Positions 1-39,109 of a stretch of 64,000 nucleotides of DNA are shown one piece after another. The stretch's first letter is position 1; every line of letters starts with the position of its first letter. The stretch comes from a virus. Where the stretch lies: positions 39,293 through 103,292 of IMG/VR virus record IMGVR_UViG_3300017788_001394, one strand, 5' to 3'. The notes beneath the pieces are model-generated. The model was given only the letters and a program-made list of their open reading frames with translations, was not told the origin of the DNA and did no database searches. The position numbers and the translations under genes were made by a program.

Positions 1-942
1 TAATCCGTGAATCTTAGCATTAATAGCATCTTTGCCGCCTGCGAAATCTATAAATTTCCATATCTGTTCTGTCTTAGGATCTTTGTTCCACCACTTGTAC
101 ATACGGCCAGCAGTCCAACAACAGGGCAACGCTACTCCCTCTGCTGTAATAAACAAACTACCTTCGTCTTTAACTTTACAACGAATGGGAGTTTGTTGGT
201 AGTAAGCATCCATACTACCATATTTTATTTCCAACATTGATTGTTTCTTTAATGCACTGTTTACATACTTGTCGTCGGGCTTTTTAAGTTCAGTTGTTTG
301 ATTGCCACGACGATCAATTGCTTGATGTGATTCTTTTTTCTTGCTGTCCTGCGTAATAAATCTTCCGGTTTTTTTAGCAACAAACTTTTCAAAGCCCATT
401 GTTTGTGCTAGTTCTTCTGCTTCGTCTACTTGATGTTGGTTGTGTTCAAATATAAGGAAGTCCCATCGAGCTCTGCCGCCTGCTGCAATAAATGCTTTCA
501 TGTTACGATAAACAGTATCCCAATTAACACCTTGACGATATAAATGATTTGTATCACGTAGCCCATCTACACTAAAAATAACTGTGCCTGCTCTTCCAAG
601 TACAGCGGCAAGTTCTTGCCACCATTCAGTATCACGAGCACCTGCGTTAGTATTCATGCTTAACCACATGTTAGGGTTATGTTCTCTAAAGTATTTAAAT
701 ATTTCAAGTGTATCTCGTGCAATAATAGGATCACCTAAATTGCCACACATATACATTGTTTTAAGTTGACCGATAAACTCTGGCTCAAATATACGTTTAC
801 AATCTTCAAGTGTTAGCTCGCTTAAATCGATATGAGGATTTAATGCGCCGCCGTTTTGATTGCGGTCACACATTGGACAACTGGCTTGACAGTTTTGTGT
901 TACTTCTAAGTGTATGGTTTTTATGTTTTCGAAAGTGTACAT
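1..942 (-). CDS. Radical SAM protein with C-terminal SPASM-like domain (3' end runs off the window; absent from ORF track)
   Basis: Manual translation from ATG at 942: MYTFENIKTIHLEVTQNCQASCPMCDRN (CxxxCxxC)...MCGNLGDP...FSVDG...RCKVKDEGSLFITAEGVALPCCW. Frame is open to position 1. Confidence 0.9.
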   Translation of the reverse strand, partial: MYTFENIKTIHLEVTQNCQASCPMCDRNQNGGALNPHIDLSELTLEDCKRIFEPEFIGQLKTMYMCGNLGDPIIARDTLEIFKYFREHNPNMWLSMNTNAGARDTEWWQELAAVLGRAGTVIFSVDGLRDTNHLYRQGVNWDTVYRNMKAFIAAGGRARWDFLIFEHNQHQVDEAEELAQTMGFEKFVAKKTGRFITQDSKKKESHQAIDRRGNQTTELKKPDDKYVNSALKKQSMLEIKYGSMDAYYQQTPIRCKVKDEGSLFITAEGVALPCCWTAGRMYKWWNKDPKTEQIWKFIDFAGGKDAINAKIHGL

Positions 943-967
943 TCAAATATATCTACTTTTGTGTTTC

Positions 968-975
968 TATAAATA
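968..975 (+). promoter_or_regulatory. T4-type late promoter motif TATAAATA
   Basis: Exact T4 late consensus 25 nt upstream of ATG 1001; a gp55-like gene lies in the window. Confidence 0.55.
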
Positions 976-1000
976 CTTATCTAAATTATAAAGGTACTTA

Positions 1001-1330
1001 ATGAATTATTATCACATCTGGGCCGATCCTAAGGAAGGCGTCGAGGCTAAAGATTTTGCAGTAAAAATGCGTAAGTTCTTGGATCAATTGGTTTCGATGG
1101 GTCGTATGCATTCTTATAAATTAACTAGGATGAAATTGGGATTCAGGAGCATTGACTTACCAGAATTTCATGTTATAATGGAATTTAAAAATATGCAACA
1201 GTTAGATGACGCAATGACTTCTGTATTAGAAGATGAACAAAACATCGAGTCTGTTCATGTTGCATTTAATCAATTGGTGGATAGCGAAACTATACATCAC
1301 GCATTATACAGGGATTATCCAGATGAGTAA
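1001..1330 (+). CDS. DUF6614-like small ferredoxin-fold protein
   Basis: YHIWAD...YKLTRMKLGFR...PEFHVIMEF...QLDDA pattern recalled for DUF6614. Confidence 0.6.
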   Translation: MNYYHIWADPKEGVEAKDFAVKMRKFLDQLVSMGRMHSYKLTRMKLGFRSIDLPEFHVIMEFKNMQQLDDAMTSVLEDEQNIESVHVAFNQLVDSETIHHALYRDYPDE

Positions 1331-2507
1331 AGTAAATAGTTGGGATGAATTTCAACCATTGGAAGAATTGTTAGTAGGAAGTGTATACAACAGCGAATTC
1401 TTCAATGAAGTTAAAAATCCAAAAATACGCAGTGCATTAAAAAAGATCATTGACGAAACACAAGAAGATCTTGAATACTTCAAAACTCAAATGCAAAGTC
1501 ATGGCATTAAGGTGTATCAGCCTAGTCCTACAGAACTAGGATACAAGTCTAGTATCATGGACTACGTGAACGAAAACGGAGAGCTTGGATATAAAAGAAA
1601 CGTAGGCGGATCGTTTTTTACCACTGGTGTTAGTGCAAGTTTAATTCCAAACCCGCCGCTACAGCCAAGAGATGATAGTATTGTAATGGGTAACAAGATA
1701 CTAGTCACCGACCCCAACACATATGCTATTAAGGCGCTGTTGCCGAAATTTGAGGAATGGTTCGGTAAGGAAAATATCGACACTTCAATGAAGAAAGAAA
1801 ATGTTCAGTTACCAAGAAGCGAAAAGAATCTTAAAAACTACTTGACCAGAAACAATATTGCTGTAACTGATGAGAATCTCGAAGCTGCTAAAAAGATAGA
1901 AACATTGGGCGGATTTTGCAGTCCAACACTAACTAGGATTGGCAAAACCTGTTTAGTAGATACATGGCAAGTACCTACAGTAGTAGAAGATTTCTTAAGT
2001 GTAAAAGTTCCAGAGTTTGATTACCGCAAGATTACAATCGGCGGTCATAATGATAGTATTTTTAGCGTGATTAAGCCAGGTGTATTGGTAGCAACAAGAG
2101 AACTAGAACCTTACAAGCATATTTTTGAAGGCTGGGATATTATTTGGTTTGATGATCCAAATTGGAGTCATGTTAGACACTGGCTGGATCTACGTGCTAA
2201 GAATCGTGGCAAGTGGTGGGTCCCTGGCGAAGAACAAAACGACGAGTTTACTTCGTTTGTTGAAACATTCCTTAGTAACTGGACTGGTATGGCCGAAGAA
2301 ACTATATTTGATGTTAACTGTTTGGTTATCGACGATCAACACGTTGTTGTTAATAGCGAAAATCCTTATCTGATTGAAAACCTAGAAAAGCATAACATGA
2401 CGCCTGTTATTTGCCCACTGAGACATAGCTTCTTTTGGGATGGCGGATGGCATTGCTTGACACTTGATATTAAACGCAGAGGTGGACAAATTGACTACGG
2501 AATTTGA
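1323..2507 (+). CDS. Amidinotransferase (glycine/inosamine-phosphate amidinotransferase superfamily)
   Basis: VNSWDEFQPLEELLVG N-terminus, PRDD, GHND and C-terminal DGGWHCLTLD (catalytic Cys). Likely start is ATG 1323, overlapping the upstream stop. Confidence 0.85.
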   Translation: MSKVNSWDEFQPLEELLVGSVYNSEFFNEVKNPKIRSALKKIIDETQEDLEYFKTQMQSHGIKVYQPSPTELGYKSSIMDYVNENGELGYKRNVGGSFFTTGVSASLIPNPPLQPRDDSIVMGNKILVTDPNTYAIKALLPKFEEWFGKENIDTSMKKENVQLPRSEKNLKNYLTRNNIAVTDENLEAAKKIETLGGFCSPTLTRIGKTCLVDTWQVPTVVEDFLSVKVPEFDYRKITIGGHNDSIFSVIKPGVLVATRELEPYKHIFEGWDIIWFDDPNWSHVRHWLDLRAKNRGKWWVPGEEQNDEFTSFVETFLSNWTGMAEETIFDVNCLVIDDQHVVVNSENPYLIENLEKHNMTPVICPLRHSFFWDGGWHCLTLDIKRRGGQIDYGI

Positions 2508-2979
2508 AGCATATATGAAAGAATGGATTTTAAACGATCTTTCATCTCCTGTTGCTGCATTAAATAATTTTTCAAAATGCCCGTATGCTAAAACAGCATT
2601 TTTAGAAAACAAGGTGCGGTTCGTGGACGGTAGCGCAAACTTATATGCTGTAGTGGAGAAAGTTGTAGCACACTGGGATGACCAGCTTACAGAAGTTGTT
2701 GTTATACACCTGGGTGATAGTATATCATCTGATGATATAGAAACAACAGTAAACGCATTAAATCAACAGTATATGCCCGAAGATTTTATTTTCCTTGACG
2801 ACCATGTGGAAAACGAAGAACGTATGCATGACGTTGTTTTCAACAATGGAAAGTATAATGTTCTGTTTTTACAACAGAAAAGCAAACTAGATTTAGCAGC
2901 CAAAAAATTAGAAAAGCTAGGCTATTATAAGAATTGGACTAAAGAGTACTACGACGAAGTTGTAAGTTGGCGATCATAA
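2464..2979 (+). CDS. Hypothetical protein, DUF1415-like (CPYAK motif); start may be 2491 or 2515
   Basis: NNFSKCPYAK motif and GYYKNW C-terminus. Confidence 0.5.
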   Translation: MILNAEVDKLTTEFEAYMKEWILNDLSSPVAALNNFSKCPYAKTAFLENKVRFVDGSANLYAVVEKVVAHWDDQLTEVVVIHLGDSISSDDIETTVNALNQQYMPEDFIFLDDHVENEERMHDVVFNNGKYNVLFLQQKSKLDLAAKKLEKLGYYKNWTKEYYDEVVSWRS

Positions 2980-3402
2980 CGGTCCTAACAATTCAAAGCC
3001 ATCTATTTTACTTTTATATTCGTCGGCGCCTCCTAAGTATAGATACTTAAACCCTAGTTCTTTATAATAAGCACATTCGATTTTTAAACTACTGATGCCT
3101 AGTCTTAATTTAGGATTTTTATAATCCCATGCAAACTGTATTGCTTCTACATTTTCGTTATCATATCGTCTTAATATACTAAATCCTACTAATTGATCGT
3201 TATCATAATATCCGATAATATCATTGTTTTTATCTGTAAACTCGCTATCAAATATAGGCATTACACTTCTAAATTTTTTATAGTTACAGTATTCTCTATA
3301 TAAGTTTTGTAACTCGCTAATTTCAAAATCTTGTATAGTTAATAAGCTATAATTGCCTAGTTTATTGTAATTGGTTTTACTTAAATCAATTCTCGCATAC
3401 AT
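2974..3402 (-). CDS. Aminoacyl-tRNA-protein transferase C-terminal (ATE_C/Bpt-like) GNAT-fold protein
   Basis: LGISSLKIECAYYKELGFKYLYLG...YKSKIDGFE resembles the LG..S...EI..A...G..YLYLGY......YK motif of ATE_C. Confidence 0.65.
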   Translation of the reverse strand: MYARIDLSKTNYNKLGNYSLLTIQDFEISELQNLYREYCNYKKFRSVMPIFDSEFTDKNNDIIGYYDNDQLVGFSILRRYDNENVEAIQFAWDYKNPKLRLGISSLKIECAYYKELGFKYLYLGGADEYKSKIDGFELLGPL

Positions 3403-3438: not shown

Positions 3439-4086
3439 TCATTTATTTTCATCCGTATTGTTGTCTGGAGGTGTCAATAGTGCGGTAAGATGGTCATCCA
3501 GCCACCATCGATCTGCAGGTTGTATGTATTTTTCATTGGCATCTTGCTTTAAAATTTCTTCAATTTGAGGATCGTCCCATGCTATCGGAAAATCCAGCCA
3601 ATGTGACAAACTTTTCACGTATTGCTGCTTATAAAGATACAATAATTCCTGACTGATATAAAACGGAGGTATTTTTATATTTTTTAAAAGCTGTGGCATG
3701 TTGCCCCAAGTAGGACCGCCACGAAGTCGTGTTTGTTGATGTGTTAATATATTTTTATCCCTACCAATAACCACCAGTTGTGTATCGATACCGACATCCT
3801 CTAATTTATTTATAAAATCAAATACAGGCGGTACTTTAGGCAACCAGTTTTCGATATAAGGATTCGAAATACTTGTTACAGCGTATTGTTTACCTCCCAT
3901 TATGTTAACATCAATTTTATCTATATTATTCCAGTAATAGTTAAACGGTTCTTTATAATGTGGTATAAAATAACCGTCGGGTTTAAGTGCATCTTTCCAC
4001 CCATGCACATCTTTATGTAAACTAAAAATTTTACCAAATAAATGATTCCCAGATCCTTGTGGACCTACTAATACAATCATCTTCAA
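3439..4086 (-). CDS. P-loop/sulfotransferase-like protein
   Basis: N-terminal VLVGPQGSGNHL and downstream VVIGRD, matching the PAPS-binding loop layout. Confidence 0.5.
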   Translation of the reverse strand: MKMIVLVGPQGSGNHLFGKIFSLHKDVHGWKDALKPDGYFIPHYKEPFNYYWNNIDKIDVNIMGGKQYAVTSISNPYIENWLPKVPPVFDFINKLEDVGIDTQLVVIGRDKNILTHQQTRLRGGPTWGNMPQLLKNIKIPPFYISQELLYLYKQQYVKSLSHWLDFPIAWDDPQIEEILKQDANEKYIQPADRWWLDDHLTALLTPPDNNTDENK

Positions 4087-4107
4087 TTTTCGATTCCTTT
4101 GAAAATT

Positions 4108-4144
4108 AAAATACGGCTACATATCATTATGCAGCCGTATTTTT
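4108..4144 (-). terminator. Intrinsic terminator downstream of the symporter (possibly bidirectional)
   Basis: AAAATACGGCT-ACAT...ATGC-AGCCGTATTTT inverted repeat with A/T tails. Confidence 0.7.
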
Positions 4145-4159
4145 AATATAACAATTACT

Positions 4160-5638
4160 TTACTGTGAATTTGAAATTAATTCAGTGGTTTTGCTTTTGT
4201 TAACAGCCGTAATCAGACTAGCTAGTATACCTGATCCGAAGATTGCTATTAGTGTTCCTGCCATAGTAAATGCAGCACCACCACCAAACTGTTGACCATA
4301 TACAAACATTGGGAAACCTATAATGAATGCAATCACAATGCCCCAAAACATACCATGCTCGCTAATCAACTCAGGCTTCCATAGATGTAACATCATTGGC
4401 CACCATACTGTTGCTCTCATCACACCAAAGAACAAGAAAATTGTCAACAGTGTCATTCCGGGCCAGTTTGCGATTACAAGAGCCATAGTAGCTAGTGCTA
4501 GCATACCACCTCTTGACCATTTGATATTAGCTGCTTCGCTGCTGTCGTTACTAAACTTGTTTTTGATGTCATGTCCTACTAGTGATGCAGCACTATTAAG
4601 TTGACTGTCTAATACTGCAACAAGTCCTGCAAGCAACATGAACAACACAATAAGCACTGTCCAGCTTGGCAAGAAGCTACCGATGGTAATAACTGTAGTC
4701 ATACCTACCAGTTCTTTTGGAATTTCTAAGCCAGCGCCTGCAGCAACAAATCCAAGTGAACCGATCATCAAAGGTACAAATACGAAGATAAATGCGCCGC
4801 CGATGAATGCATGTTTGATGCGATCTTGCTTAATAGCAAACGCTCTCTGGTAGAATCCGTTATCGCCCCATGGTGCACCAAGGTGTCCAAGTGCAGTACT
4901 CATACCTACTGCCATAAACACACCAAGCGCAAAATCGTTAACTAGGCTTGCACCATTGCCGGTTATACCGCCAAATCCAGTTGTTAGTATTGCACTACCA
5001 CCTGCTGCACTCCATGCCCATGGAATAACAACTATTATACCTGCCCACAATACTACGATTTTAAAAATTTCAGTAATAACGGACGCTTTTAATCCGCCAC
5101 GCAGTGCATATAGCAGTGCGATGCCTGCAAGTGCAATTGTTACAAAGTGATAGTTGATGCCAGTGATGGTTTGAACTGCCTGCGAGCCTGCAAGTGCGTT
5201 GATTGCAAATGCACAGCTAGCTAACATCCAAAGTTCTAACAAGAAGATATTTTGCACACGGCTGCTAAACTTTTCTTTAATATAGCCTGGTAACGTAAAG
5301 CCCATCGGCTGACTTGCTCTAATTTTATGAACAAATAATCCAAATATAATTAAACTTAAGAAGTTACCTATAGTAAACCAAAATAGCCCAGCAATGCCAT
5401 TCATGTATGCCATTTGAGCTGAAATAAACAGTGCTGGTGCCCATGCCCATGCTGCTGCAGTACTCATTGCCCCTGCTAATCCGCCGATTTCACGACGTGC
5501 TACTAAGAAGCTTGTTTTGTTGTCCGCATAGCCTTTAACATACCAAGCAGTTAATGCAAAGACTATTAAACCATACAGTCCTACTAATAACCATCCGGTG
5601 GTTTGGTCGAATAGCGGAAATAATGTTGTTAAATCCAT
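4160..5638 (-). CDS. Sodium:solute symporter (SSS family, PutP/DUR3-like)
   Basis: About 13 hydrophobic segments; FLVARR, STAAAWAWAPALF, YALRGGLKASVITE, YQRAFA, LDSQLNSAASL. Confidence 0.85.
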   Translation of the reverse strand: MDLTTLFPLFDQTTGWLLVGLYGLIVFALTAWYVKGYADNKTSFLVARREIGGLAGAMSTAAAWAWAPALFISAQMAYMNGIAGLFWFTIGNFLSLIIFGLFVHKIRASQPMGFTLPGYIKEKFSSRVQNIFLLELWMLASCAFAINALAGSQAVQTITGINYHFVTIALAGIALLYALRGGLKASVITEIFKIVVLWAGIIVVIPWAWSAAGGSAILTTGFGGITGNGASLVNDFALGVFMAVGMSTALGHLGAPWGDNGFYQRAFAIKQDRIKHAFIGGAFIFVFVPLMIGSLGFVAAGAGLEIPKELVGMTTVITIGSFLPSWTVLIVLFMLLAGLVAVLDSQLNSAASLVGHDIKNKFSNDSSEAANIKWSRGGMLALATMALVIANWPGMTLLTIFLFFGVMRATVWWPMMLHLWKPELISEHGMFWGIVIAFIIGFPMFVYGQQFGGGAAFTMAGTLIAIFGSGILASLITAVNKSKTTELISNSQ

Positions 5639-5639
5639 T

Positions 5640-6377
5640 TTATTCTCCTTTAATGTATCTATATACTACTCGTTCGGCCGGTGTAGTTACATCGCCAAAC
5701 TCCACTCTTTTTAACTGCTCGTAGTAAGGCTGTTGAAGTGTTTTTCTATATTCGAATACTTCATCAAACAATTCATAATCACAAACTTCCCAAGAAAGAA
5801 AATTAGAAATTTTATCAAAAAACTCTGTTGGTTTAGAATGATTAACATCGTACATGTTAACACGTAACAGGTTTGCATTGTTGTATTCTTTATTAAACGA
5901 CCCCGCTGCAATATCTGCTCTGAGCCTGACGAGCAAGTCGTCTTCATCTGTAGCTTCTATCATCCCATACCAACGTGCTTGATCCATTGTTGGTTCATTG
6001 CGAAGGTATCGCATCAGATGTTCTTCTACTGTAGTGCATTCTAGTAAAATCATCTTATCGTTATTTTGTAAATTACCAATGGCAGTTTCTATACTAGGGT
6101 TTAGTTTTTCTCTAACACCTACAGGCCAGCCTGCGTATATGTTATAGCCCCACAGCTTTTCTTTTGATCTTGACAAATCCATCATTGCAATAAAATTGTC
6201 ATTGTTTTGTATTTTACAGTAAGTAACGTATTTGTGCCCACTACCGTCTGGTAGCAAAGGATTATCAGTAACTACTGGTTGATGCTTTTTGCGTTCCGCA
6301 CTAAATCTATCAACTACCCAACTTAAAAAACTGCCATATGCACCAGGTTGATATGCAAGGCAAATTAATTGTGTCAT
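5640..6377 (-). CDS. Hypothetical protein, possible degenerate P-loop/sulfotransferase fold
   Basis: N-terminal LAYQPGAYGSFL Gly-rich loop; AGGAG RBS upstream. Confidence 0.4.
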   Translation of the reverse strand: MTQLICLAYQPGAYGSFLSWVVDRFSAERKKHQPVVTDNPLLPDGSGHKYVTYCKIQNNDNFIAMMDLSRSKEKLWGYNIYAGWPVGVREKLNPSIETAIGNLQNNDKMILLECTTVEEHLMRYLRNEPTMDQARWYGMIEATDEDDLLVRLRADIAAGSFNKEYNNANLLRVNMYDVNHSKPTEFFDKISNFLSWEVCDYELFDEVFEYRKTLQQPYYEQLKRVEFGDVTTPAERVVYRYIKGE

Positions 6378-6404
6378 TTTAAATATTTCTCCTGTATGTC
6401 ATTG

Positions 6405-6433
6405 AAAAACCCCTGCCAGATTAATAGCAGAGG
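6405..6433 (-). terminator. Terminator-like hairpin in the leader of the 5640-6377/symporter unit
   Basis: Minus strand CCTCTGC-loop-GCAGGGG followed by TTTTT. Confidence 0.55.
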
Positions 6434-6533
6434 CTAAAGTTATACTACCATTTTATTTGATAGAGAAACAACGAACTTACTGTTAGTAGCGTTGTTGCTT
6501 CTGTGTTAATTATATAGTGTTTTATTTATTTGG

Positions 6534-7211
6534 TTATTTTTTCGACCAGACAAAATACAACCGATTGTTATGATCGTGTTTAATGTCAATGACATCAACG
6601 CCAAAGTAGTCTGCACAGTTAATAATAAAGTTACTATTCCACGAGTAAAAACTAATCCATCGGCTTTCGGGTGGAGTATGCTGTACACCGGGATTTACTC
6701 TGAAAAATAGCTTTCCTTTAGATGCAGTTAACGATACTGCTTTTTCTAGTTCAGTAAAGATTTTATCAGTGCTACCAAAGTTAATACTACCTAGTGCTAA
6801 TACAACATCGTATTGTTGACTAGTTGTATAATCAGCAATTTTACACTGTATGTCGGCATGACTGTTGTAAGGATCTAAGCCTGTCAGGTTATTAATTTTA
6901 CCTTTGAATTCGTTGTAACCACAACCAATGTCAAGCACCGAGCGTGGTTTTAATGAATTGACTTCTTCAATTAGCTTTAATCCGCTATACTTAAACTTCT
7001 TCATTTCAGGTTGCCATACTTCACTAAAGTATCGACCTAATACTTTGTCGTCGATTTTTTCTACCAACTCGCCTATGTTGCTAAAACTTACATTGTCGAC
7101 CCATATATCAAACGTTCCGACGATTGCTTGCTGCAACTTTGCAGGATGTCTGAGCAACTGAGGGTTAGTTTGCAGCATGTGTTCTACTGCTTCGAGGATT
7201 TTATGATTCAT
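6534..7211 (-). CDS. Class I SAM-dependent methyltransferase
   Basis: VLDIGCGYN, GLDP, YDVVLALGSINF. Confidence 0.8.
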   Translation of the reverse strand: MNHKILEAVEHMLQTNPQLLRHPAKLQQAIVGTFDIWVDNVSFSNIGELVEKIDDKVLGRYFSEVWQPEMKKFKYSGLKLIEEVNSLKPRSVLDIGCGYNEFKGKINNLTGLDPYNSHADIQCKIADYTTSQQYDVVLALGSINFGSTDKIFTELEKAVSLTASKGKLFFRVNPGVQHTPPESRWISFYSWNSNFIINCADYFGVDVIDIKHDHNNRLYFVWSKK

Positions 7212-7248: not shown

Positions 7249-7276
7249 ATTATAATATTATTATAATCGTTGTCAA
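7249..7276 (-). promoter_or_regulatory. Sigma70-type promoter TTGACA-N16-TATAAT overlapped by an inverted repeat
   Basis: Perfect hexamers on the minus strand; palindrome GATTATAAT-att-ATTATAATC at 7248-7268. Confidence 0.6.
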
Positions 7277-9296: not shown

Positions 9297-9413
9297 TTAC
9301 TCATATATGAATGGATCTCGCTTACGCAATTCAGCTAGTCGCTTTTTTAAACGTTTGCGTTCTTTATAATTAGTCCAAGGGCTTAATATAAATTTTATAA
9401 TTTTGGCAAGCAT
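9297..9413 (-). CDS. 38-aa basic micropeptide ending in PFIY (not in ORF track)
   Basis: MLAKIIKFILSPWTNYKERKRLKKRLAELRKRDPFIYE. It fills the gap between the carbamoyltransferase and the glycosyltransferase, overlapping the former's stop. Confidence 0.7.
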   Translation of the reverse strand: MLAKIIKFILSPWTNYKERKRLKKRLAELRKRDPFIYE

Positions 9414-32022: not shown

Positions 32023-33504
32023 TTAAACTCCTAGCGTATCTGTTTCTGTATTCCACCCTCCGGTGCCTGCTACAATGTCGTCGTTTAAATAATGTTCTGT
32101 CGTTGCAGGGTCTATTGCGGATGTAATACTAGGGACAACTATATCCGGGTTGTAAGATATGCTATCGTACCATTCTACAAATGTAGGAAATGCAGCACGG
32201 AAATCTTTGTTACGTCTGATGTCATACTGCTCATAGAAATAACGGAAGTCATTATATAACTTAGGTGTTTCTGCTGTATTGCGATGTGGCGTTTTAACAA
32301 CGTCTAAATAATCGATCAGTCGTTGAACATGTGCAACTTCACCCTGACTTAAAAACTCTTGTTTTGTTGGTAACCAATCTTCAAGTTTTTTCTTAAAAAT
32401 TGCTTTCAACTCTACCGGCAATATCGCAGCACTTTGGAAACTAGGAAAGCGCAATATGTTGAGTGTCATAGTAGGAGCACGAAATCCGTATTCTTTTCTA
32501 AGCTCTAACATGTCGTCCATAAATTCAGTTATAGACTCTAAACACAAACTATTAATAGTCATCATACAATGTAATTCTTTAACGTTAGATTCCTCTAACA
32601 ACCTTACAATGTTACTACGCCAGATTTTGTAATCAAACCCGTCACGGGTATATTCGTTTTGTGTCGCTGCACATTCAGCACTGGTATATATTTCAAAATT
32701 TTGTATGTCAAAACTTGCGTCTATTAGTTTTTGAAACATGCGCTCATTTTCGGGAACAAGATTGCTATTGATAGCAAAACGCATAGTGCTTGTTGGGTTG
32801 TCACGAAACCAATCAAACAGTTTCCAAACAGACTTATGCATTAATGGTTCGCCGCCTGTGATTCGGATTTCTTCTAGTTTATCACTAAGACCATTTTCCC
32901 ACCACTTCCAAAACGCAATAATATATGGATTGTCTTCTTCATGCAATGTTTTACGTGCAGCCCAGGGCGCAGTATCGATAAAGTGCCCACGTCCATCACT
33001 TTGGATATTCATGTAAGGACCTTTATCTTTAATGTCTTTAACCCATGTGCTGCTGAATGCAGGATTGCAATAACTACATGCAAAGTTACATGCACGGTCA
33101 AACGCAATTTCGAGTGTTCTTAATGTGACATCTTGATCCCATGGCGTAGTAACACACGCTTTTACATCTTCGTCACTGAATATTTGCGTTTTATAAACAC
33201 GGTCGCTAATGTTGTTTCGTCCAATATCTTCCACTTTCCAACAATATTCGCATTCTTGTGGACGCTCACCTTCCTGCATCATTTTACGCATAAGTTTTTT
33301 GTGTTTAGTGTTATGAATAGCGGTAGGATTAATCATTAATTCATCGGTTGGGATCCAATGTCCTGGTGGATGGTGACAGCTAGTAGTTTGACCATGACCC
33401 AGCCATATTGTAGCATTGTACCACTTAGCTGCACAAAAACTTTTACTTATCGGATCAATTATGCGTTCTTTATATTCGTGATAACTTTCATTATTTTTTT
33501 TCAT
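32023..33504 (-). CDS. Radical SAM protein with N-terminal twitch-like domain (CHHP variant)
   Basis: FCAAKW...SCHHP...CEYCW; CNFACSYC; TGGEPL. Confidence 0.9.
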   Translation of the reverse strand: MKKNNESYHEYKERIIDPISKSFCAAKWYNATIWLGHGQTTSCHHPPGHWIPTDELMINPTAIHNTKHKKLMRKMMQEGERPQECEYCWKVEDIGRNNISDRVYKTQIFSDEDVKACVTTPWDQDVTLRTLEIAFDRACNFACSYCNPAFSSTWVKDIKDKGPYMNIQSDGRGHFIDTAPWAARKTLHEEDNPYIIAFWKWWENGLSDKLEEIRITGGEPLMHKSVWKLFDWFRDNPTSTMRFAINSNLVPENERMFQKLIDASFDIQNFEIYTSAECAATQNEYTRDGFDYKIWRSNIVRLLEESNVKELHCMMTINSLCLESITEFMDDMLELRKEYGFRAPTMTLNILRFPSFQSAAILPVELKAIFKKKLEDWLPTKQEFLSQGEVAHVQRLIDYLDVVKTPHRNTAETPKLYNDFRYFYEQYDIRRNKDFRAAFPTFVEWYDSISYNPDIVVPSITSAIDPATTEHYLNDDIVAGTGGWNTETDTLGV

Positions 33505-35072
33505 GTTTTGTTACTTTCGTTAAAATGTTTATAGCAATCGTTCCACCAGTTTCCTAGTTCGGGAAAAACTTCAGGGAACTTAGTGTTTCTTCTTTGATCA
33601 ATTTGATTAAAATATAACCAGAACTGTTTTTTTCTTCTAGCTATCTCTGCAACAGAAAGCTCTGTTTTTCCGTTTTTGATCCAAGCAATGTCTCTTTTAA
33701 GTTTAGCGATTTCGTAGTGCTTGAACCCATGATACGTTCTGCCATAGTGTTCATTTTCTACATTATTTTCCATGAAAACTAAACAATCTTCTAACATAGA
33801 AATAAGTTCAGGATAAAACGCTGCATTTTGTGCGCTCATCCATTCTGGCTGACGAAGATATGGAATATCGAACCAAACTCGCTGGCGACGTTTTCTAACA
33901 AAAGGAGGATGCACAAAACCGTTACGGTCGGGAGGTTGTATAACATGATCTGTTTGATTTTCATAACCAAATTCTATACGCAAATCTAAAATCATTTGCA
34001 AAAATTCTTTAAGACGAGGAATACTTAGTAAGTTAAATGTGTTAATAAAACTTATCTCTGATCCATGTGTTTCTTTCATGAATGTTTTAATATTTTTCAT
34101 CATACGTTCGTAATTGAGACCTGTTCTGATATATTCCGCTTGTTCACCTGTACTATCTAAGCTAATGAACAAACTAAAATGTTTACATGCAGGGGCCACA
34201 TACCAATTATTACCGCTATCTGGGTTAAACTTTTCTTTATCTTCCCAAATTCTAACTTCCTCGATAGCTTTTAGTTTTTTAATAAATTTATCGAATAAAC
34301 GTTGATCAGGTGGACACATATTACTAGTTATACTTAAGTCTAATGTAGAATTTGGATTTTTGTTAACATAATCTAATACTCTAAATGTATTTTTATCCAT
34401 TAGAGGTTCGCCGCCGGTCATACGAAAAACTTTCAAATCCTTATACAAATCAGGCCACCAGTCCCAAAAGGCCTCTACATAAGGATTATCTTTATTACTA
34501 GAATTGATAGGCATTAACCCCGCAGCAGATAAACTTTTAATATCGTTATGTTTAAAGTTGTCGCCGAGATCATACGGGCCATAATCTTCGATTTCTTTTT
34601 GCCAAGATGTGCTTAAATGAGGACTGCAATATGTGCATTTAAAATTACATGCTTGATTGAAATTAACTTCAACATATCTTGGATTAATGTTGTTGTCCCA
34701 CCCGCCGTCTATTACTTCGTCCCAACCATCTTGTGCCCATACTTCGCTGCTACGATAATGCCTATCGCTTAAATGGGGTCCATCGGGAGCGTCTTCGATA
34801 TTCCAACAATATTGGCATCCAGCTGGACGTTTACCTTGCCACATATCTCTGCGTTGTTTTACTTTTTCCATTGTATTGTGCAACGCTTTAGGATTTACTT
34901 CTAATTCGTCTAAAGGAATTTTGTGTGTTGGCGGATGGTAGCAGCTTTGCGTTAATCCTGATGTTAAATGCATACTGACTTGCAACCATTTAGCCATACA
35001 CATAGTAGAACTAATCTGATTTAACTTGTCTTTAGTTTTTTTTGCTTCTTCGAAGTAATCAAGAGCTGCCAT
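33501..35072 (-). CDS. Radical SAM protein with N-terminal twitch-like domain (CYHP variant)
   Basis: MCMAKW...SCYHP...CQYCW; CNFKCTYC; TGGEPL. Confidence 0.9.
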   Translation of the reverse strand: MAALDYFEEAKKTKDKLNQISSTMCMAKWLQVSMHLTSGLTQSCYHPPTHKIPLDELEVNPKALHNTMEKVKQRRDMWQGKRPAGCQYCWNIEDAPDGPHLSDRHYRSSEVWAQDGWDEVIDGGWDNNINPRYVEVNFNQACNFKCTYCSPHLSTSWQKEIEDYGPYDLGDNFKHNDIKSLSAAGLMPINSSNKDNPYVEAFWDWWPDLYKDLKVFRMTGGEPLMDKNTFRVLDYVNKNPNSTLDLSITSNMCPPDQRLFDKFIKKLKAIEEVRIWEDKEKFNPDSGNNWYVAPACKHFSLFISLDSTGEQAEYIRTGLNYERMMKNIKTFMKETHGSEISFINTFNLLSIPRLKEFLQMILDLRIEFGYENQTDHVIQPPDRNGFVHPPFVRKRRQRVWFDIPYLRQPEWMSAQNAAFYPELISMLEDCLVFMENNVENEHYGRTYHGFKHYEIAKLKRDIAWIKNGKTELSVAEIARRKKQFWLYFNQIDQRRNTKFPEVFPELGNWWNDCYKHFNESNKT

Positions 35073-36049
35073 TAAATACTATCTATAACCTCAGTTTCAC
35101 GAATCATTGCACCTGTTCTAGCAGGATTTTTATAAGTTGTTTTAAAGAAGCGACTACCGGTCCAATCTAAATCAGCGATTTCAAGATCAAGATTACTTCT
35201 TAATTCATTACCAAGTCTTACTGTTTCTGCTTTTAATTTGATCGGATCCCAACTGTATCCTGTACGTGGACAAAGTTCTGTCCCATCTTCAAACTGGGGC
35301 GCTAATTCTGTGTTAAAGTAATTGCTTAACCAATCAAAGTCTCTAACGTTTTTCCAGTCCCATTCATGACGCAATATGTTTGTCATATAGCATCCCAATC
35401 TTGCGCCGTATACAGCCCACAATCCGTTTGGTGCATCTTCGCCTACGCTCATCCAAACCAACAAACGCTTATAGTTTTCTCTATGAATTTTCTTAAGTTT
35501 ACTAGGATCGACTACATCGCCGTTTTCTAATCCCATTTTTACACCTTCACGGAAACCAGCACGCCATGCTTGCAACGGACTGCCGTTGTTGTAGACATGA
35601 CTATACCAGTTATTCATTTGAACGTAGTGAATATTCCAACAGAAATCTACTTGCGCCCGCTTATCAGTAGGAGGTGCTGCTTCGTGTGTTCGCATACGCA
35701 TCACTACATCAACCGGCCAACATTTAATGCCGCCGTTGCCGTAAATTAAACCGTTAATTTGATTTCGTGCAGCCCAGCTAATAACATCATTACTACGAAC
35801 TTTATCCATATTGATTTCAACATTAAAAAAATCTTCGTTGACAATGTTGTCAGCATCAATTGTAATAAATCGTTCAGTTTCACTTAGTGCAGCGGCTGCT
35901 TTGTGTGCAGCATCACTGCCCCAAACACCGTGACTACGTTTAGCCCAAGGACATTTTGTTAATAAGTCTGCATAGTTTTCATCTGCATTAGGCTCGTCGT
36001 AGCTAATGTAGACAATATCAAAATCGTTAATACTTACCAGATTTGACAT
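35072..36049 (-). CDS. Glycosyltransferase-like protein (GT-A fold)
   Basis: ISYDEPNA, GSDAAHKAAA, TIDADN, YGNGGIK, AWRAGFREG; paralog of 8575-9288. Confidence 0.7.
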   Translation of the reverse strand: MSNLVSINDFDIVYISYDEPNADENYADLLTKCPWAKRSHGVWGSDAAHKAAAALSETERFITIDADNIVNEDFFNVEINMDKVRSNDVISWAARNQINGLIYGNGGIKCWPVDVVMRMRTHEAAPPTDKRAQVDFCWNIHYVQMNNWYSHVYNNGSPLQAWRAGFREGVKMGLENGDVVDPSKLKKIHRENYKRLLVWMSVGEDAPNGLWAVYGARLGCYMTNILRHEWDWKNVRDFDWLSNYFNTELAPQFEDGTELCPRTGYSWDPIKLKAETVRLGNELRSNLDLEIADLDWTGSRFFKTTYKNPARTGAMIRETEVIDSI

Positions 36050-37034
36050 ATTCAATTTCCTCAAATTTAAAAGTTATATTTTTGCCTTCTTCGCCTAATA
36101 ATAATTTACATGTAGTAGGATCTATCGTAGTCTTTACTATGTATTCTTTAAAGTTACCAATTTGATCGTAAGGTATAATTATCTTGTCAAGCAGTATATT
36201 AGGATCTTTGCCTGTTAAAAAAATCTTAAGGTCTTTGTATATTTTTTGTTCTTGCGGATTATCAAAGTTACTTCTAACAATCCATCCTTCTGTAGACGGG
36301 CTAACAGAAAATGTACTCCATTCTACTGTGGATTTTTGAATTATAGTTTGCATTCTCTTGTTGTTTCTTCTAGTATGATAATCTATGTTAACATAGTTTT
36401 GTTTTATTTTCAAGCCATAATTTTTAAAAATTCGTCTTGTTAACACGTCTACACTTGCAAGATCGAGTGTATTTTGCAAATGAGATAAATCTAAGATTGT
36501 GTAACCGTTTTTTACAATATCTATTACTTTGATTTTTATCGTTTCTAATAGATGGGTTGGATTGTTCTTTTTAATAAGATAAAATACTAAGTAATTCTCA
36601 TCAGAATCGTCAGTATAGTAGCGATTGTTAAAACGTTTACCTGTCATTTTGTAGATAGTATCTTGATTTAAGTTAACTTCCATTCTATAATCGTTTATAT
36701 ATAAAATAACATTAACATCGCTATCTATAAAGTTTTTTACTCTAGGTATTTTAGTTAGAATTTCCTCGGCTTTTTTAATTGCAAGCACATCAGATTTTGG
36801 TAATAGTTTCATACCGTCTACTAAGTTACTCACTACATATTTTTTGGGATTTAAAATGCCCATCATTAATTTTGCAGCAGTTTCATCTTCTGTTATAATG
36901 TGAGGATAGCTTTGCTGTTTGTATTTACCGGTGATACTTTTGATCTCACCTGTCCAGTCGTCGTAATATACGTAGTACTTAGGTAAAGTCTTGCCTTCAT
37001 CTGCTATTTGAATTAATCTTGGCTCTGATGACAT
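36027..37034 (-). CDS. Hypothetical protein
   Basis: 335-aa ORF overlapping both neighbours; no motif recognised. Confidence 0.7.
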   Translation of the reverse strand: MSSEPRLIQIADEGKTLPKYYVYYDDWTGEIKSITGKYKQQSYPHIITEDETAAKLMMGILNPKKYVVSNLVDGMKLLPKSDVLAIKKAEEILTKIPRVKNFIDSDVNVILYINDYRMEVNLNQDTIYKMTGKRFNNRYYTDDSDENYLVFYLIKKNNPTHLLETIKIKVIDIVKNGYTILDLSHLQNTLDLASVDVLTRRIFKNYGLKIKQNYVNIDYHTRRNNKRMQTIIQKSTVEWSTFSVSPSTEGWIVRSNFDNPQEQKIYKDLKIFLTGKDPNILLDKIIIPYDQIGNFKEYIVKTTIDPTTCKLLLGEEGKNITFKFEEIEYVKSGKY

Positions 37035-37866
37035 CTACAATATCTTCTGTTAAAAACGACTTATCGTGATAGTGAATGATACCTGAATTAATAACATAAT
37101 TTTCGATAATCAACTTCCCGGCGTCGGTATACCAATGATTTAACATTTCTGTCCAATTTATAGGTATATCTTCATTCCATAACCATTGGCTTCTTAGATC
37201 TAAATCGTACAGATTGTTCAAACTAACTGTTACTTCACTATTTACATCTAATAAATGTGTTACAATATTTGCCAACACATTTTTATCAAAGGACAGTGGT
37301 TTTTTGTCACTTAATAATTTACTATACACACTTCTCCAATTCTGGAAAATCGGGTCGGCCATCTTAAACCATTGAATGGCCAGTGGCATGTTACGATCAA
37401 AGTATATCAAATTATTAAAATTTGTAGGTAACTGGTAATGCATTTCAATATCAAAATACCGATTATAATTAATAACTGTGTTTCTAAATGTTCTTGCTAA
37501 ATTGGAAACTGCAAACCCTGTTGCATTAGCAGACATTTGTCCCCACAGTAACTCGATGTCCACATTATTGAATATCGTATCATAATCTACATAAATGGTT
37601 TCATCGAACGGTGTAGCATGAATTAGCTGCCATAAGTTCATTCCATGGAAACCATCTTTATATGCAGTGTTACCGAAAGGTAGCTCTGCTATATAATTAA
37701 AAGCATGAAAGTAATTAGATGGGACTAAATCTTTTTTGCCATTATCGACAATCAGACAAGTTTCCGCAGTTGGGTCACTAGCTTTGATACTCATCGCAAG
37801 ACCGTAGCTGTATTTTATCATATCTCTGTCGGTGTTGATACCGAGTGTAACAAATCCTCTAGACAT
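36997..37866 (-). CDS. Glycosyltransferase-like protein (GT8/mannosyltransferase-like)
   Basis: RGFVTL...LAMSIK...TPFDETIYVDYD...IHYHDK. Confidence 0.65.
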   Translation of the reverse strand: MSRGFVTLGINTDRDMIKYSYGLAMSIKASDPTAETCLIVDNGKKDLVPSNYFHAFNYIAELPFGNTAYKDGFHGMNLWQLIHATPFDETIYVDYDTIFNNVDIELLWGQMSANATGFAVSNLARTFRNTVINYNRYFDIEMHYQLPTNFNNLIYFDRNMPLAIQWFKMADPIFQNWRSVYSKLLSDKKPLSFDKNVLANIVTHLLDVNSEVTVSLNNLYDLDLRSQWLWNEDIPINWTEMLNHWYTDAGKLIIENYVINSGIIHYHDKSFLTEDIVDVIRAKINSNSR

Positions 37867-38768
37867 TAAAATTTTGCCTGTAATTTTTCAATAAAAAGAT
37901 CGGCGTGTCTACTGATTGCCCTTTTATTCATAACGTGTATATTTGTATTTTCTAATCTAACAAGAATATTCTTCCAAGGCTCTTTTCTATTATGGCTTAA
38001 CATAATTAGATCAGTTGTATCTTTGACTTCTATTAAATCATCTTTTTGGTCCATATTGAGTAACGGCACTGATAAACCTTCAACAAATGAATCATTTGTA
38101 AACCCGTTCAATAAATGAGCAGCAATGCTAACACAAAAATCTGTTCTAAATAGTGCAGGTGGGAATTGATATAGAAGATAATAATAATCCCAGTTGTCTT
38201 TCACATGTGACCATATATCAAAAAAGATTTCTGCTTCGTCACTTTTGTCAAAATATACTACAGTAGACCACCAATGATGTATACCCGTTTCGTTCAGATC
38301 ACATTCATTCATATAAGGACGTTGTCCTTCTAAGTATATAGAATCCCTGTGTAATGCCAATGGCATTGTACTGTCAAACAAGAAATCGTAATAATTGTTT
38401 TGTATAAAATAATCGGTGTCGATTAATAATGTTTTGTTATACGGAGAAAGTTGAAAAATGTCGTGTTTGTTGCTGTTACTAAATTGGGCATTAAATTCAG
38501 TCCACGGACTGTCGTAATGCTTTCGTGGATTAGACTTGTGTTCAACATCCTGAATAATAATATTGTCAAAGCATTGATTGTGCCATTTTTTATCCGTCGA
38601 TTCTTTCAACCAGTTATAAGTGCCGTTGTCTGTAACTAGTGTCACAGAGTTATTTTTCATATTTTGCTTAACATATGCGGCTGCAATGTGAGCCATTTTA
38701 ACATAATCAATTTGACTATTGTTATATGCAAACATGCACACACCGTTTTCTTCTTCACTCATTACCAA
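37866..38768 (-). CDS. Glycosyltransferase-like protein (GT8-like)
   Basis: GVCMFAYN...SPYNKTLLIDTDY...WSTVVYF...FRTDF...HVMNK. Confidence 0.65.
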   Translation of the reverse strand: MVMSEEENGVCMFAYNNSQIDYVKMAHIAAAYVKQNMKNNSVTLVTDNGTYNWLKESTDKKWHNQCFDNIIIQDVEHKSNPRKHYDSPWTEFNAQFSNSNKHDIFQLSPYNKTLLIDTDYFIQNNYYDFLFDSTMPLALHRDSIYLEGQRPYMNECDLNETGIHHWWSTVVYFDKSDEAEIFFDIWSHVKDNWDYYYLLYQFPPALFRTDFCVSIAAHLLNGFTNDSFVEGLSVPLLNMDQKDDLIEVKDTTDLIMLSHNRKEPWKNILVRLENTNIHVMNKRAISRHADLFIEKLQAKF

Positions 38769-39109
38769 CCCATTAATTTTTTAACGTTTCTTGCTCTGTT
38801 TACTTTATCTAACAGTGTTAGATATTCATTGGTTGCTTCAGTATATTTTTCAATAAGCAAATTAAAAAACTCTTTTAAATCATCAATTTTAATAGGCGTT
38901 TCTTTTGTATCTAATAAAATAGCACTTGTTTTATTAGCCGTTAATAAACCGCTAACAATACCGATCGTAATAGCATCTGCTAAAAAACTTCCGTTATTAT
39001 AATGAACTAACTGTAATATTTGCATTCTACTGCGAATATTACGTTTTTGATTTGCTAATGTTTGTCTGTAGTTTGCAAAGTCTAGAGCTTTTTCGAGTCT
39101 CTCATCCAT
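38762..39109 (-). CDS. Hypothetical protein (possible tail-fibre assembly/chaperone-like)
   Basis: 115-aa ORF with AGGAG RBS; first gene of the GT/rSAM unit, directly after the fibre genes. Confidence 0.55.
   Translation of the reverse strand: MDERLEKALDFANYRQTLANQKRNIRSRMQILQLVHYNNGSFLADAITIGIVSGLLTANKTSAILLDTKETPIKIDDLKEFFNLLIEKYTEATNEYLTLLDKVNRARNVKKLMGW

Follow-up and report, generated by a model that had tools for sequence, protein, structure and literature searches.

What product does a jumbo phage make with roughly 60 kb of genes, placed beside its tail-fiber genes, for sugar-transferring, radical SAM (rSAM), and other tailoring enzymes? The question is raised by a freshwater phage record whose genome is estimated by CheckV at near 370 kb, 28% of which is in hand as a 103-kb IMG/VR contig. 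The window analyzed here is a 64,000-nucleotide stretch of that contig. An earlier note on this DNA had read positions 1 to 39109 as an island of about 40 consecutive genes that runs off the left edge, abuts fiber and baseplate genes, and makes a tailored glycan or adduct that is put on virion proteins.

Gene content and setting of the island

The outline of the island holds. We counted 41 non-nested open reading frames (ORFs) in positions 1 to 39109, and the rSAM and enzyme block continues leftward to about contig 18.4 kb, arguably 11.9 kb. The rSAM gene at the left edge has a start codon at 942, and its full ORF (359 aa, contig 39155-40234) extends past the window. Further left are an OpuAC-type ABC importer, an aldo/keto reductase, and AMP-binding enzymes, and the hydropathy scan places an ABC permease at the left flank of the contig. 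The adjoining baseplate and fiber genes are gp25, gp6-like, and VgrG-like, with a baseplate wedge closest to those of jumbo phages Atu_ph07, SCTP-2, PA5oct, and fHe-Yen9-04. The join between fiber genes and enzymes (~39.1 kb), which might have been chimeric, is spanned by contigs obtained independently in two other studies and is thus real.

TABLE 1 Features of the island and its fiber-side border (window coordinates)
Feature	Position	Strand	Basis or remark
rSAM without N-terminal twitch	1-942	-	Pfam Radical_SAM, E 1.3e-9
Four-gene unit	1001-3402	mixed	Pfam, PDB, Atlas; same unit in relative L010
DUF6614	1001-1330	+	Pfam
Amidinotransferase	1233-2507	+	PDB matches, Atlas lead
171-aa ORF	2464-2979	+	In four-gene unit
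ATE_C-like aminoacyl-transferase domain	2974-3402	-	27.3 bits, cut-off 25
Symporter operon, four genes	3439-7211	-	Pfam, hydropathy, motifs
SSF Na+/solute symporter	4160-5638	-	Pfam SSF, E 1.5e-21; 10 hydrophobic segments
Methyltransferase-motif protein	6534-7211	-	Motifs by eye
361-aa protein	7487-8572	-	N-terminal helical repeats; >2000 unannotated metagenomic family members
Short GT-A paralog, 237 aa	8575-9288	-	33.7% identity to 35072-36064, E 8e-30
38-aa Lys/Arg-rich ORF ending DPFIYE	9297-9413	-	Overlaps carbamoyltransferase stop codon
NodU/CmcH-family carbamoyltransferase	9395-10927	-	Carbam_trans_C, E 1e-51; Carbam_trans_N, E 1.7e-33
Activation/tailoring block	10906-18479	mixed	Pfam, NCBIfam, motifs
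HisC-like class I/II aminotransferase	11455-12468		Family model
Conventional rSAM-SPASM	12470-13372		Pfam/NCBIfam
Nucleotidyltransferase-HAD fusion	13369-14403		HAD C terminus by family model; N terminus weak PDB match, E 0.019
APH/RIO-like kinase	14400-15137		HGDxxxxN motif; RIO, E 3e-4 (weak)
354-aa ORF	15287-16351	+	
Methyltransferase	16459-17208		Family model
NTP transferase	17144-17845		Family model
HAD phosphatase	17835-18479		Family model
Plus-strand array	18485-32006	+	CC-type rSAMs with other genes between
Weak 2OG-like protein	19635-20297	+	21 bits, under cut-off
Six CC-type N_Twi_rSAM	20841-22010, 23673-24845, 24842-26074, 26176-27561, 29588-30811, 30804-32006	+	NF033640
Methyltransferase-like protein	27543-28823	+	Motifs
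Two CH-type N_Twi_rSAM	32023-35072	-	NF033640, 300 and 296 bits
GT-A-fold GT-like protein	35072-36064	-	AF2 pLDDT 88.8
335-aa protein	36027-37034	-	Closest relatives only
Two GT8-like (glycogenin-like) paralogs	36997-37866, 37866-38768	-	Profile comparison
115-aa protein (S115), first operon gene	38762-39109	-	Position conserved in 18 loci and RsoM2USA ORF354
Sigma-70-type promoter, TTGACA-17-TATAGT	39137-39165	-	11/12 match
Two fiber/tail-pin-like structural genes	39174-41381	-	PHROG hits

The group transferases that the earlier note had listed (carbamoyl-, amidino-, amino-, and aminoacyl-) are all recovered by family or structure matches. The C-terminal catalytic segment of the amidinotransferase matches HsvA, SxtG, and StrB1 (E 7e-8 to 1e-7). 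The carbamoyltransferase is encoded at 41 of the 80 viral loci and at 11 of 78 cellular ones; the 38-aa ORF at its end gives no match to the DUF5989 model, and a search next to the carbamoyltransferase of 37 relatives turned up no equivalent. Other items come out in part. One of the two NTP transferases (17144-17845) is assigned by family model and the second, the N terminus of the fusion, only weakly. Among the four methyltransferase folds, that at 16459-17208 is assigned by model and those starting at 6534, 7487, and 27543 by motif. Both HAD assignments stand, whereas the kinase match is weak, the proposed 2OG oxygenase falls below its cut-off, and the SGNH proteins are putative. The C terminus of the 361-aa protein looks like a Rossmann methyltransferase from its motifs and matches the ORF347 region of Ralstonia phage RsoM2USA; a PDB search with this protein returned no match.

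The symporter operon, which has a sigma-70-type site (promoter scan, 12/12 match, ~7249-7276), also encodes a P-loop-like 215-aa protein and a 245-aa ORF; the earlier note had not mentioned its Na+/solute symporter. The activation/tailoring block includes a 142-aa ORF, and the plus-strand array holds a 390-aa orphan, two 270- to 285-aa paralogs (22013-23680), and a 273-aa ORF.

Radical SAM proteins

All 10 radical SAM proteins previously counted are present: the protein at the left edge, the conventional rSAM-SPASM, and eight members of N_Twi_rSAM (NCBIfam NF033640; twitch domain N-terminal). Across the whole contig there are about 19 rSAM genes, of which 14 belong to N_Twi_rSAM, scoring 205 to 407 bits against a cut-off of 170. 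In each of the 14, an N-terminal Cys-rich domain is followed by CX3CX2C, and a C-x17/18-C ... CxxC twitch pattern is found. The six CC-type proteins (254 to 402 bits) show the Pfam order SPASM, then Radical_SAM. In the two CH-type proteins (starting at 32023 and 33501), C-H or C-Y-H stands in place of the CC pair. These correspond to the copies adjoining the GT-A gene in relatives, and a co-oriented CH-type rSAM lies next door in 38 of 59 GT-A hits.

An AF2 model from the plus-strand array reached a pLDDT of 90.4. The structures nearest to the rSAM core model are anSME, viperin, SkfB, BlsE, MoaA, and DesII (Z 10.4 to 11.7); enzymes acting on sugars and nucleotide sugars are among these neighbors, as are peptide maturases. 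The proteins share a twitch-type auxiliary cluster with the natural-product enzymes BtrN, NeoN, DesII, BlsE, and AviX12-type epimerases, of which DesII and BlsE are structural neighbors, and natural-product rSAM sugar tailoring likewise pairs with amino-, amidino-, and carbamoyltransferases. The likeness is at the superfamily level only (Z 10 to 12, 13 to 20% identity); the twitch domain is N-terminal here and C-terminal there, and the phage genes stand behind fibers. NF033640 is a naming model, and no reaction or substrate was found for it in the literature. Single phage genomes carry arrays of 8 to 17 N_Twi_rSAM copies, of which we found no description in the searchable literature.

Glycosyltransferase-like proteins and the conserved operon

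Four GT-A-type proteins are confirmed where about six GT-like proteins had been claimed. The GT8-like paralogs match one another with an hhalign probability of 99.8% (profiles A3 and A4), A4 matches glycogenin-1 (E 9e-8), D-x-D is conserved, and the Atlas lead is also to GT8. The GT-A-fold protein, present in 63 of 80 viral loci, has an invariant D70-x-D72-N (alignment A2). Its fold matches (VIA Z 8 to 9.8, rmsd 3.0 to 3.5 Å, 135 to 141 residues) include B4GALNT1, WrtF, SunS/ThuS, PBCV-1 A64R, and STIV A197, and nucleotidyltransferases score level with glycosyltransferases in this search. D-x-D also aligns in its short paralog, which is matched in 61 of the 80 loci. The 335-aa protein has no profile similarity to GT families.

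These genes belong to a stereotyped, co-oriented series (fiber, S115, GT8, GT8, GT-A, two CH-type rSAMs, about three CC-type rSAMs, carbamoyltransferase) found in dozens of the 80 viral loci examined. The family is present in at least 597 IMG/VR viral contigs; the 10 records that were checked have genomes estimated at ~340 to 400 kb, and two or three are near complete. The suspicion that related islands lie unannotated in metagenomic jumbo phages is thereby borne out, and no characterized phage pathway of this kind was found in the literature, as had been supposed.

A minimal form of the cassette occurs in the cultured phage RsoM2USA (MG752970, ORF347 to ORF355), where all genes are annotated as hypothetical. 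The order is fiber, small protein, two GT8-like, GT-A-like, one CH-type rSAM, and short GT-A paralog, without a carbamoyltransferase. Identities to our phage are 44.5% for the GT-A-like protein, 35% for the CH-type rSAM (ORF349), and 43% for the short paralog. Mass spectrometry has identified ORF356, ORF359, and ORF361, upstream of that cassette, as virion proteins (PMC8504454).

Promoter and position behind the fiber genes

The operon stands directly behind fiber genes in every relative. Its sigma-70-type promoter lies between the fiber stop codon and the operon, and seven of nine relatives keep an exact TTGACA together with a good -10 box at the operon head, with diverged spacers. Promoters of the same class precede the exonuclease, ATPase, and HNH genes of the contig, whereas a structural gene is preceded by a T4-late-type TATAAATA box instead. 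The claimed union with the tail module is therefore positional and not transcriptional, and by its promoter sequence the operon is not simply a piece of the late tail operon. This difference points to expression that is separate and possibly early, and it makes a virion target less likely. The C-terminal domain of the fiber shares 58% identity with a virion structural protein of PA5oct and is present in PA5oct-like phages, which are absent from the N_Twi_rSAM hits among phage records; this counts against the proposal made below.

Proposed product and its acceptor

The families present (GT-A/GT8-like transferases and NodU-family carbamoyl-, amidino-, amino-, and nucleotidyltransferases) support a set of enzymes of the carbohydrate-tailoring type, as does the cellular context of N_Twi_rSAM described below. 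As a tentative best explanation of the whole, we propose that the block makes an unusual sugar decoration and edits it. We infer that the soluble GT8-like and GT-A-like transferases would assemble a short glycan from nucleotide sugars on a cytoplasmic acceptor; the cassette encodes no membrane assembly protein, and importers are its only multi-pass members. Each N-terminal-twitch rSAM would take hydrogen from one defined sugar carbon, where its auxiliary cluster would lead to oxidation, epimerization, or deoxygenation. Keto groups may then be transaminated and the resulting amines amidinated, and hydroxyls carbamoylated and methylated, while the kinase, nucleotidyltransferase, and HAD enzymes would activate extra building blocks supplied by importers.

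Virion fiber or baseplate proteins are the leading candidate acceptor, though at less than even odds. Glycan tailoring is the part of the original claim that is supported; attachment to virion proteins is a candidate reading, weakened by the operon's own promoter and by the finding of no acceptor motif conserved across cassette-bearing fibers. The phage resembles PBCV-1 (A064R), Mimivirus (fibril), and the O-glycosylating mycobacteriophages in having a soluble virus-encoded GT-A and no membrane export step, and the GT-A fold matches PBCV-1 A64R, Mimivirus R699, and STIV A197 (Z 7.9 to 8.9). It differs in its promoter, which is not of late type, and virion attachment is here a candidate reading. 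We know of no radical SAM, carbamoyl-, or amidinotransferase in those virion glycosylation systems.

It is unlikely, though worth weighing, that the host envelope is the target, with the soluble transferases and rSAMs acting at the cytoplasmic face on lipid-linked intermediates of LPS or capsule, and host export displaying the altered glycan, which would mask receptors or exclude competing phages. The promoter class is common to early-type genes, and GT8 is a typical LPS-core family. An envelope-glycan-like cluster on a Crocinitomicaceae chromosome has three N_Twi_rSAM genes among those for an NAD-sugar epimerase, a carbamoyltransferase, a sulfotransferase, and a membrane protein that fuses UbiA, GT4, and GDSL. 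GT8-type glycosyltransferases and "radical SAM cassettes" also occur in the host recognition cluster described for pelagimyophages and cyanomyophages (Zaragoza-Solas et al. 2020, PMC7029224), a large variable island by a giant baseplate protein and tail fibers. That paper reads them likewise, as modifying the host O-chain, and gives neither an operon structure nor assignments to families; the phage studied here differs from those in its wedge affinity, size, and freshwater source. However, Pfam and hydropathy scans of the island found neither a priming transferase nor a Gtr-type membrane protein, and no flippase or polymerase either, as the earlier note had it for flippase, polymerase, and export genes; the solute symporter is the only multi-pass protein in the window part. 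Envelope editing also fails to explain the strict position behind fiber genes, and RsoM2USA is described as lytic (PMC8504454).

We consider it improbable that the product is a free aminoglycoside-like or pseudo-oligosaccharide metabolite acting on the host or competitors, made by oxidation, transamination, phosphorylation, transamidination, and carbamoylation. Twitch rSAMs, aminotransferase, kinase, StrB1/SxtG-like amidinotransferase, phosphatase, and TobZ/NodU-family carbamoyltransferase do follow aminocyclitol logic, as in streptomycin and butirosin biosynthesis, and there are importers in the island and AMP-binding enzymes to its left. Yet the island has no exporter or resistance gene, the RsoM2USA cassette lacks amino-, amidino-, and carbamoyltransferases, and the conserved fiber linkage is left unexplained.

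Modification in the manner of a RiPP, with rSAMs cross-linking or epimerizing residues of the adjacent fiber and GTs glycosylating it, is very improbable. Peptide maturases typically carry the Pfam SPASM-type auxiliary-cluster domain seen here, the nearest structures include anSME, SkfB, CteB, and SuiB, and the neighboring 428-aa fiber has a Tyr/Gly-rich loop (54 residues, 18 Tyr). That loop is lineage specific, with YG-rich loops in four close relatives and none in more distant cassette-bearing loci; moreover, Pfam models report no peptide-recognition domain on these rSAMs, no precursor-like short ORF is conserved among relatives, and the cellular context of N_Twi_rSAM is carbohydrate, not peptide. 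Least probable of all is hypermodification of phage bases against restriction, for which the early-type promoter class, weaker rSAM matches (viperin, MoaA, QueE), and a weak PP-loop/QueC-like protein, nitroreductases, and a thymidylate-synthase-family gene on the contig left might speak, but the last is a full-length thymidylate synthase match (338 bits), the conserved core is GTs and rSAMs behind fiber genes rather than beside nucleotide-metabolism genes, and generic Pfam scans of the tested ORFs found no DpdA/TGT-like or other base-exchange family, an absence that is weak evidence because the contig covers only 28% of the genome.

We conclude from sequence comparison that the operon conserved in this clade of ~340- to 400-kb jumbo phages is present here in a rearranged and much expanded version. 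If it edits a sugar decoration as proposed, growth to 14 rSAM paralogs would yield a more heavily edited product.

Extent and gene content of the island

The window covers the right end (64 kb) of a linear IMG/VR virus record (the contig), which is 103,292 bp long and has no terminal repeat; CheckV estimates 28% completeness, so the genome would be near 370 kb. The record is of freshwater metagenomic origin, and sections of the stretch turn up again in river, lake, and wastewater runs of 12 further studies. Window positions 1 to 39109 hold 41 non-nested open reading frames (ORFs), 10 of them radical SAM (rSAM) genes by Pfam and NCBIfam, the same number that the earlier note had read from the sequence. 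As that note had also proposed, the enzyme island runs off the left edge; it extends to approximately contig position 18.4 kb, adding six N-twitch rSAMs and three rSAMs of other kinds, along with two nitroreductases and a weak PP-loop protein. Farther left are an aldo/keto reductase, an OpuAC-type ABC importer, a split rSAM, and AMP-binding enzymes, and after these come replication-type genes (thymidylate synthase, HNH, ATPase, and exonuclease). To the right, the island does abut genuine baseplate genes (gp25, gp6-like, and VgrG-like). No tRNA genes were found, and an Rfam search gave no match in the window; a symporter leader was also negative at relaxed thresholds. A giant protein beside the baseplate wedge gene has segments in common with ORF361 of the cultured Ralstonia jumbo phage RsoM2USA, a virion protein of >288 kDa. 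Directly after the tail module, at the right edge, a c-type cytochrome begins, which could be an auxiliary metabolic gene or host DNA that follows.

Coordinates of features in the window and on the contig
Reference	Position	Strand	Feature
Window	968-975	+	T4-late-type TATAAATA box, 25 nt before DUF6614 gene
Window	4160-5638		SSF (Na+/solute) symporter
Window	7249-7276	-	Perfect 12/12 sigma-70 consensus (TTGACA-16-TATAAT) before symporter operon
Window	7487-8572		361-aa protein
Window	9297-9413	-	38-aa Lys/Arg-rich ORF ending DPFIYE, 19-nt overlap with carbamoyltransferase stop codon
Window	18485-19657		390-aa protein with just four relatives, none named
Window	35072-36064		330-aa protein with putative GT-A-type domain
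Window	36027-37034		335-aa unknown gene
Window	36997-38768		Two GT8-like proteins of ~280 aa (A3, A4)
Window	39109-39174		Junction of island and tail module
Window	39417-39578	-	Tyr/Gly/Ser-rich insertion (YGYGYGY...) within 428-aa fibre gene
Window	42008-42015	-	T4-late-type TATAAATA box, 6 nt before ATG (42001) of 202-aa structural gene
Window	42011-53089	-	Giant 3692-aa protein
Window	63878-64000	+	Start of c-type cytochrome, signal-peptide-like N-terminus, CAVCH haem motif, off right edge
Contig	15542-17454		OpuAC-type substrate-binding protein and ABC permease
Contig	24433-24460	-	Perfect 12/12 TTGACA-16-TATAAT before 370-aa rSAM gene

An expanded radical SAM family

Radical SAM enzymes are costly, oxygen-sensitive catalysts. 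All-against-all BLAST resolves one rSAM cluster of 20 ORFs, and 14 of these, eight in the window, score 205 to 407 bits against the NCBIfam family N_Twi_rSAM (NF033640, "twitch domain-containing radical SAM protein"), above its curated whole-protein cut-off of 170 bits, which was exceeded in none of 14 control genomes. Every one of the 14 copies has CX3CX2C at residues 109 to 161 and, ahead of it, an N-terminal C-x17/18-C(C or H) ... CxxC pattern; three have C-H or C-Y-H in place of C-C. Mutual identity is only 23 to 32%, and the duplications are therefore old. The Pfam order in these proteins is SPASM, then Radical_SAM, and the only other domain on the rSAM proteins is one weak Fer4_12 match. 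An AlphaFold2 (AF2) model (pLDDT 90.4) finds its fold matches mostly over residues 85 to 375, hardly probing the N-terminal domain, and the rSAM core lies closest to anSME, viperin, SkfB, BlsE, MoaA, and DesII, all within one Z unit, so that structure picks no substrate class. Beside the rSAM genes, no short ORF that might encode the precursor peptide of a RiPP maturase system proved to be conserved.

The family comprises at least 6963 proteins at E <= 1e-5 and is encoded by at least 597 IMG/VR contigs in an alignment-based scan; a viral contig scan with a single-protein query returned nothing, and the alignment query recovered the family. Outside phages, it is present in species-representative genomes, among which metagenome-assembled genomes (MAGs) are frequent; these include Bdellovibrionota, Bacteroidota, and Polyangiaceae, usually with one to three copies per locus. 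On a 4.3-Mb Crocinitomicaceae chromosome, three copies sit among genes for a sugar epimerase/dehydratase, a carbamoyltransferase, and a UbiA-GT4-GDSL fusion, in a cluster that also holds a sulfotransferase, a PhyH dioxygenase, and a WelO5-like oxygenase. Such a neighbourhood belongs to glycan or glycolipid tailoring rather than to peptide chemistry. A single "Elusimicrobia" MAG (CAIRTQ01) supplies >10 short contigs with N_Twi_rSAM genes (loci L091 to L125), a signal that is probably a mis-binned jumbo phage.

A conserved operon in giant phages

Synteny comparison across related jumbo phages, which the earlier note had suggested, brought out a recurrent co-oriented order in the best 80 loci: fibre gene(s), a 115-aa protein, two ~280-aa proteins, a ~310-aa protein, two rSAMs of the CH type and approximately three of the CC type (variants of the N-terminal Cys pattern), and a carbamoyltransferase. 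A short paralog of the ~310-aa protein often closes this order in the same loci; in three loci (L011, L015, and L025), the domain of this short GT-A paralog is also fused inside 1000- to 1300-aa proteins after the carbamoyltransferase. Five contigs of 40 to 125 kb that were checked are 11 to 34% complete, which puts their genomes at approximately 340 to 400 kb. The five large records examined include complete genomes with direct terminal repeats (DTR) of 337 and 347 kb and a 92%-complete record of 342 kb, with 8, ~17, and ~16 N_Twi_rSAM copies above the cut-off, respectively. Among 50,697 deposited phage records, the core occurs only in RsoM2USA, which has the gene order seen here, a single rSAM, and every cassette gene annotated as hypothetical. 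The RsoM2USA genes just upstream of the cassette encode virion proteins, as established by mass spectrometry (PMC8504454).

Among the matches listed, the baseplate wedge is closest to those of Atu_ph07, SCTP-2, fHe-Yen9-04, and PA5oct. A T4-like pelagimyophage (HTVC008M/cyanomyophages) was rejected, as the best listed matches of the wedge are jumbo myophages at 37 to 40%; the hosts of these are Agrobacterium, Salicola, Yersinia, Pseudomonas, Xanthomonas, Sinorhizobium, and Erwinia.

Glycosyltransferase-like and tailoring enzymes

An hhalign probability of 99.8% marks the two ~280-aa core proteins as paralogs. The A4 profile matches glycogenin-1 (GT8) at E 9e-8 over profile positions 3 to 112; the A3 profile alone has no sequence match in the PDB, and neither protein matches Pfam GT8 as a single sequence. 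In the D-x-D motif, D117 and D119 are invariant in A3, and D96 is invariant in A4 in an E/D-x-D context. The AF2 model of the 330-aa protein (pLDDT 88.8) contains a putative GT-A-type domain that aligns to many GT-A enzymes at Z 8 to 9.8 over ~140 residues, with the nucleotidyltransferases IspD and MobA tying (Z 8.2 to 8.9). D70-x-D72-N73 is invariant across 30 sequences of this family, which has no sequence-level match in the PDB or Pfam, by profile included. Alongside the short GT-A paralog is a 361-aa protein from a family with >2000 unannotated members; its profile has no sequence match in the PDB. When 22 unassigned island proteins were compared with the GT-A, GT8, and 361-aa-protein profiles by hhalign, nothing reached 20% probability; PHROGs has no family for any of the five core proteins.

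The carbamoyl-, amidino-, and aminotransferases and the aminoacyl-transferase-like domain named in the earlier note were all recovered by Pfam, NCBIfam, or PDB sequence search. The carbamoyltransferase matches Carbam_trans_N (117 bits) and Carbam_trans_C (175 bits), both above the Pfam cut-offs; at 160 bits versus the NodU equivalog cut-off of 1000, it is a member of the NodU/CmcH family rather than NodU itself. The C-terminal catalytic segment of the amidinotransferase (residues 359 to 419 only) matches the solved HsvA, SxtG, and StrB1 (E 6.6e-8 to 1e-4); the remainder of the protein was unmatched in the PDB search, and there is no Pfam match. Family models further confirm a HisC-like aminotransferase, two HAD phosphatase domains, one NTP transferase, one methyltransferase, and the ATE_C-like domain. 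The rest of that inventory is fainter: three of the four methyltransferase folds are recognized by motif alone, and the 2OG oxygenase, the APH/RIO-like kinase, and the second nucleotidyltransferase (fused to a HAD domain) are weak matches, whereas the SGNH proteins stay candidates.

A Na+/solute symporter, absent from the initial list, is also present; together with the OpuAC importer it suggests import of a quaternary-amine-like or other small solute. The APH-like kinase and two nucleotidyltransferases lie in the vicinity of these transporters, an arrangement that recalls phosphocholine-type activation. DUF5989 proteins (PF19451) are small partners of carbamoyltransferases; the 38-aa ORF was rejected as one, with no match on the contig at E <= 1, its likeness being limited to the C-terminal PFIY motif. 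None of 37 related loci showed a counterpart of the 38-aa ORF next to the carbamoyltransferase or a PFIY-ending ORF after it.

Junction and transcription

A chimeric join near 39.1 kb, which the earlier note had raised, is ruled out: contigs from two independent studies bridge the junction, and relatives show the same adjacency. Inside the 64-bp gap after the fibre stop codon lies TTGACA-17-TATAGT, and seven of nine relatives, including distant ones with a diverged spacer, have a perfect TTGACA and a good -10 box at the equivalent place. Contig-wide, sigma-70-type sites precede the exonuclease, ATPase, HNH, ABC-importer, symporter, and cassette operons, and none precedes baseplate or fibre genes; this distribution suggests that transcription of the island resembles that of early-type genes and does not depend on the tail operon. 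The TATAAATA box is not enriched in the window (6 matches versus 13.8 expected), and only its placement before two genes counts, as suggestive.

The Tyr/Gly/Ser-rich fibre insertion is restricted to this contig and the relatives closest to it (L003, L024, and L059), and at least three insertion-bearing contigs also carry the 335-aa gene. Confined in this way, the loop cannot be a general substrate of the cassette.

Nature of the product and its acceptor

In the best-supported reading, a glycan is assembled in the cytoplasm and then edited by radical chemistry. The twitch rSAMs would oxidize or epimerize, and transamination, amidination, carbamoylation, and methylation would then follow. We infer these steps from what the enzyme families do elsewhere, for which BtrN, NeoN, StrB1, and TobZ/NodU are the models. 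It is possible, if on balance doubtful, that N_Twi_rSAM proteins are post-glycosylation carbohydrate editors, such that hexoses installed from host UDP-sugars are converted in place, one paralog per position, to rare epimers and to keto, deoxy, amino, or guanidino sugars. Were this so, expansion of the array would be a direct source of surface-glycan variety in the arms race between phage and host; the reading would provide a new route to glycan diversity and a first function for thousands of unstudied radical SAM enzymes.

As to the acceptor, some evidence favors virion proteins, namely, that the cassette lies behind fibre genes and that membrane assembly proteins are lacking. Among the scanned ORFs, Pfam detected no flippase or polymerase, consistent with the earlier note, and no bactoprenol transferase family (Gtr/Wzx/Wzy-type), and the only multi-pass proteins in a hydropathy scan are the SSF symporter and the ABC permease. 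Some evidence likewise favors the host envelope: the promoter class points this way, as does the published view of similar islands (PMC7029224). A free metabolite is allowed by the aminocyclitol-like gene set.

Numerous rSAM genes have been recorded in large marine phages (PMC5332604), as have "radical SAM cassettes" in a pelagimyophage host recognition cluster (PMC7029224). Our literature search turned up neither the operon nor its family or product, and it revealed no characterized pathway with this gene set, in agreement with the earlier note.

That one phage can carry 14 to 17 paralogs of one family, in an operon kept in hundreds of environmental giant phages, points to a chemistry that is important to the phage and not yet described. 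The minimal cassette in the cultured phage RsoM2USA makes the question directly testable. A product displayed on the fibres would be the first virion glycan edited by radical chemistry, with possible consequences for host recognition; a product that instead changes the host envelope, or one that is a free aminoglycoside-like compound, would represent a new kind of phage weapon.
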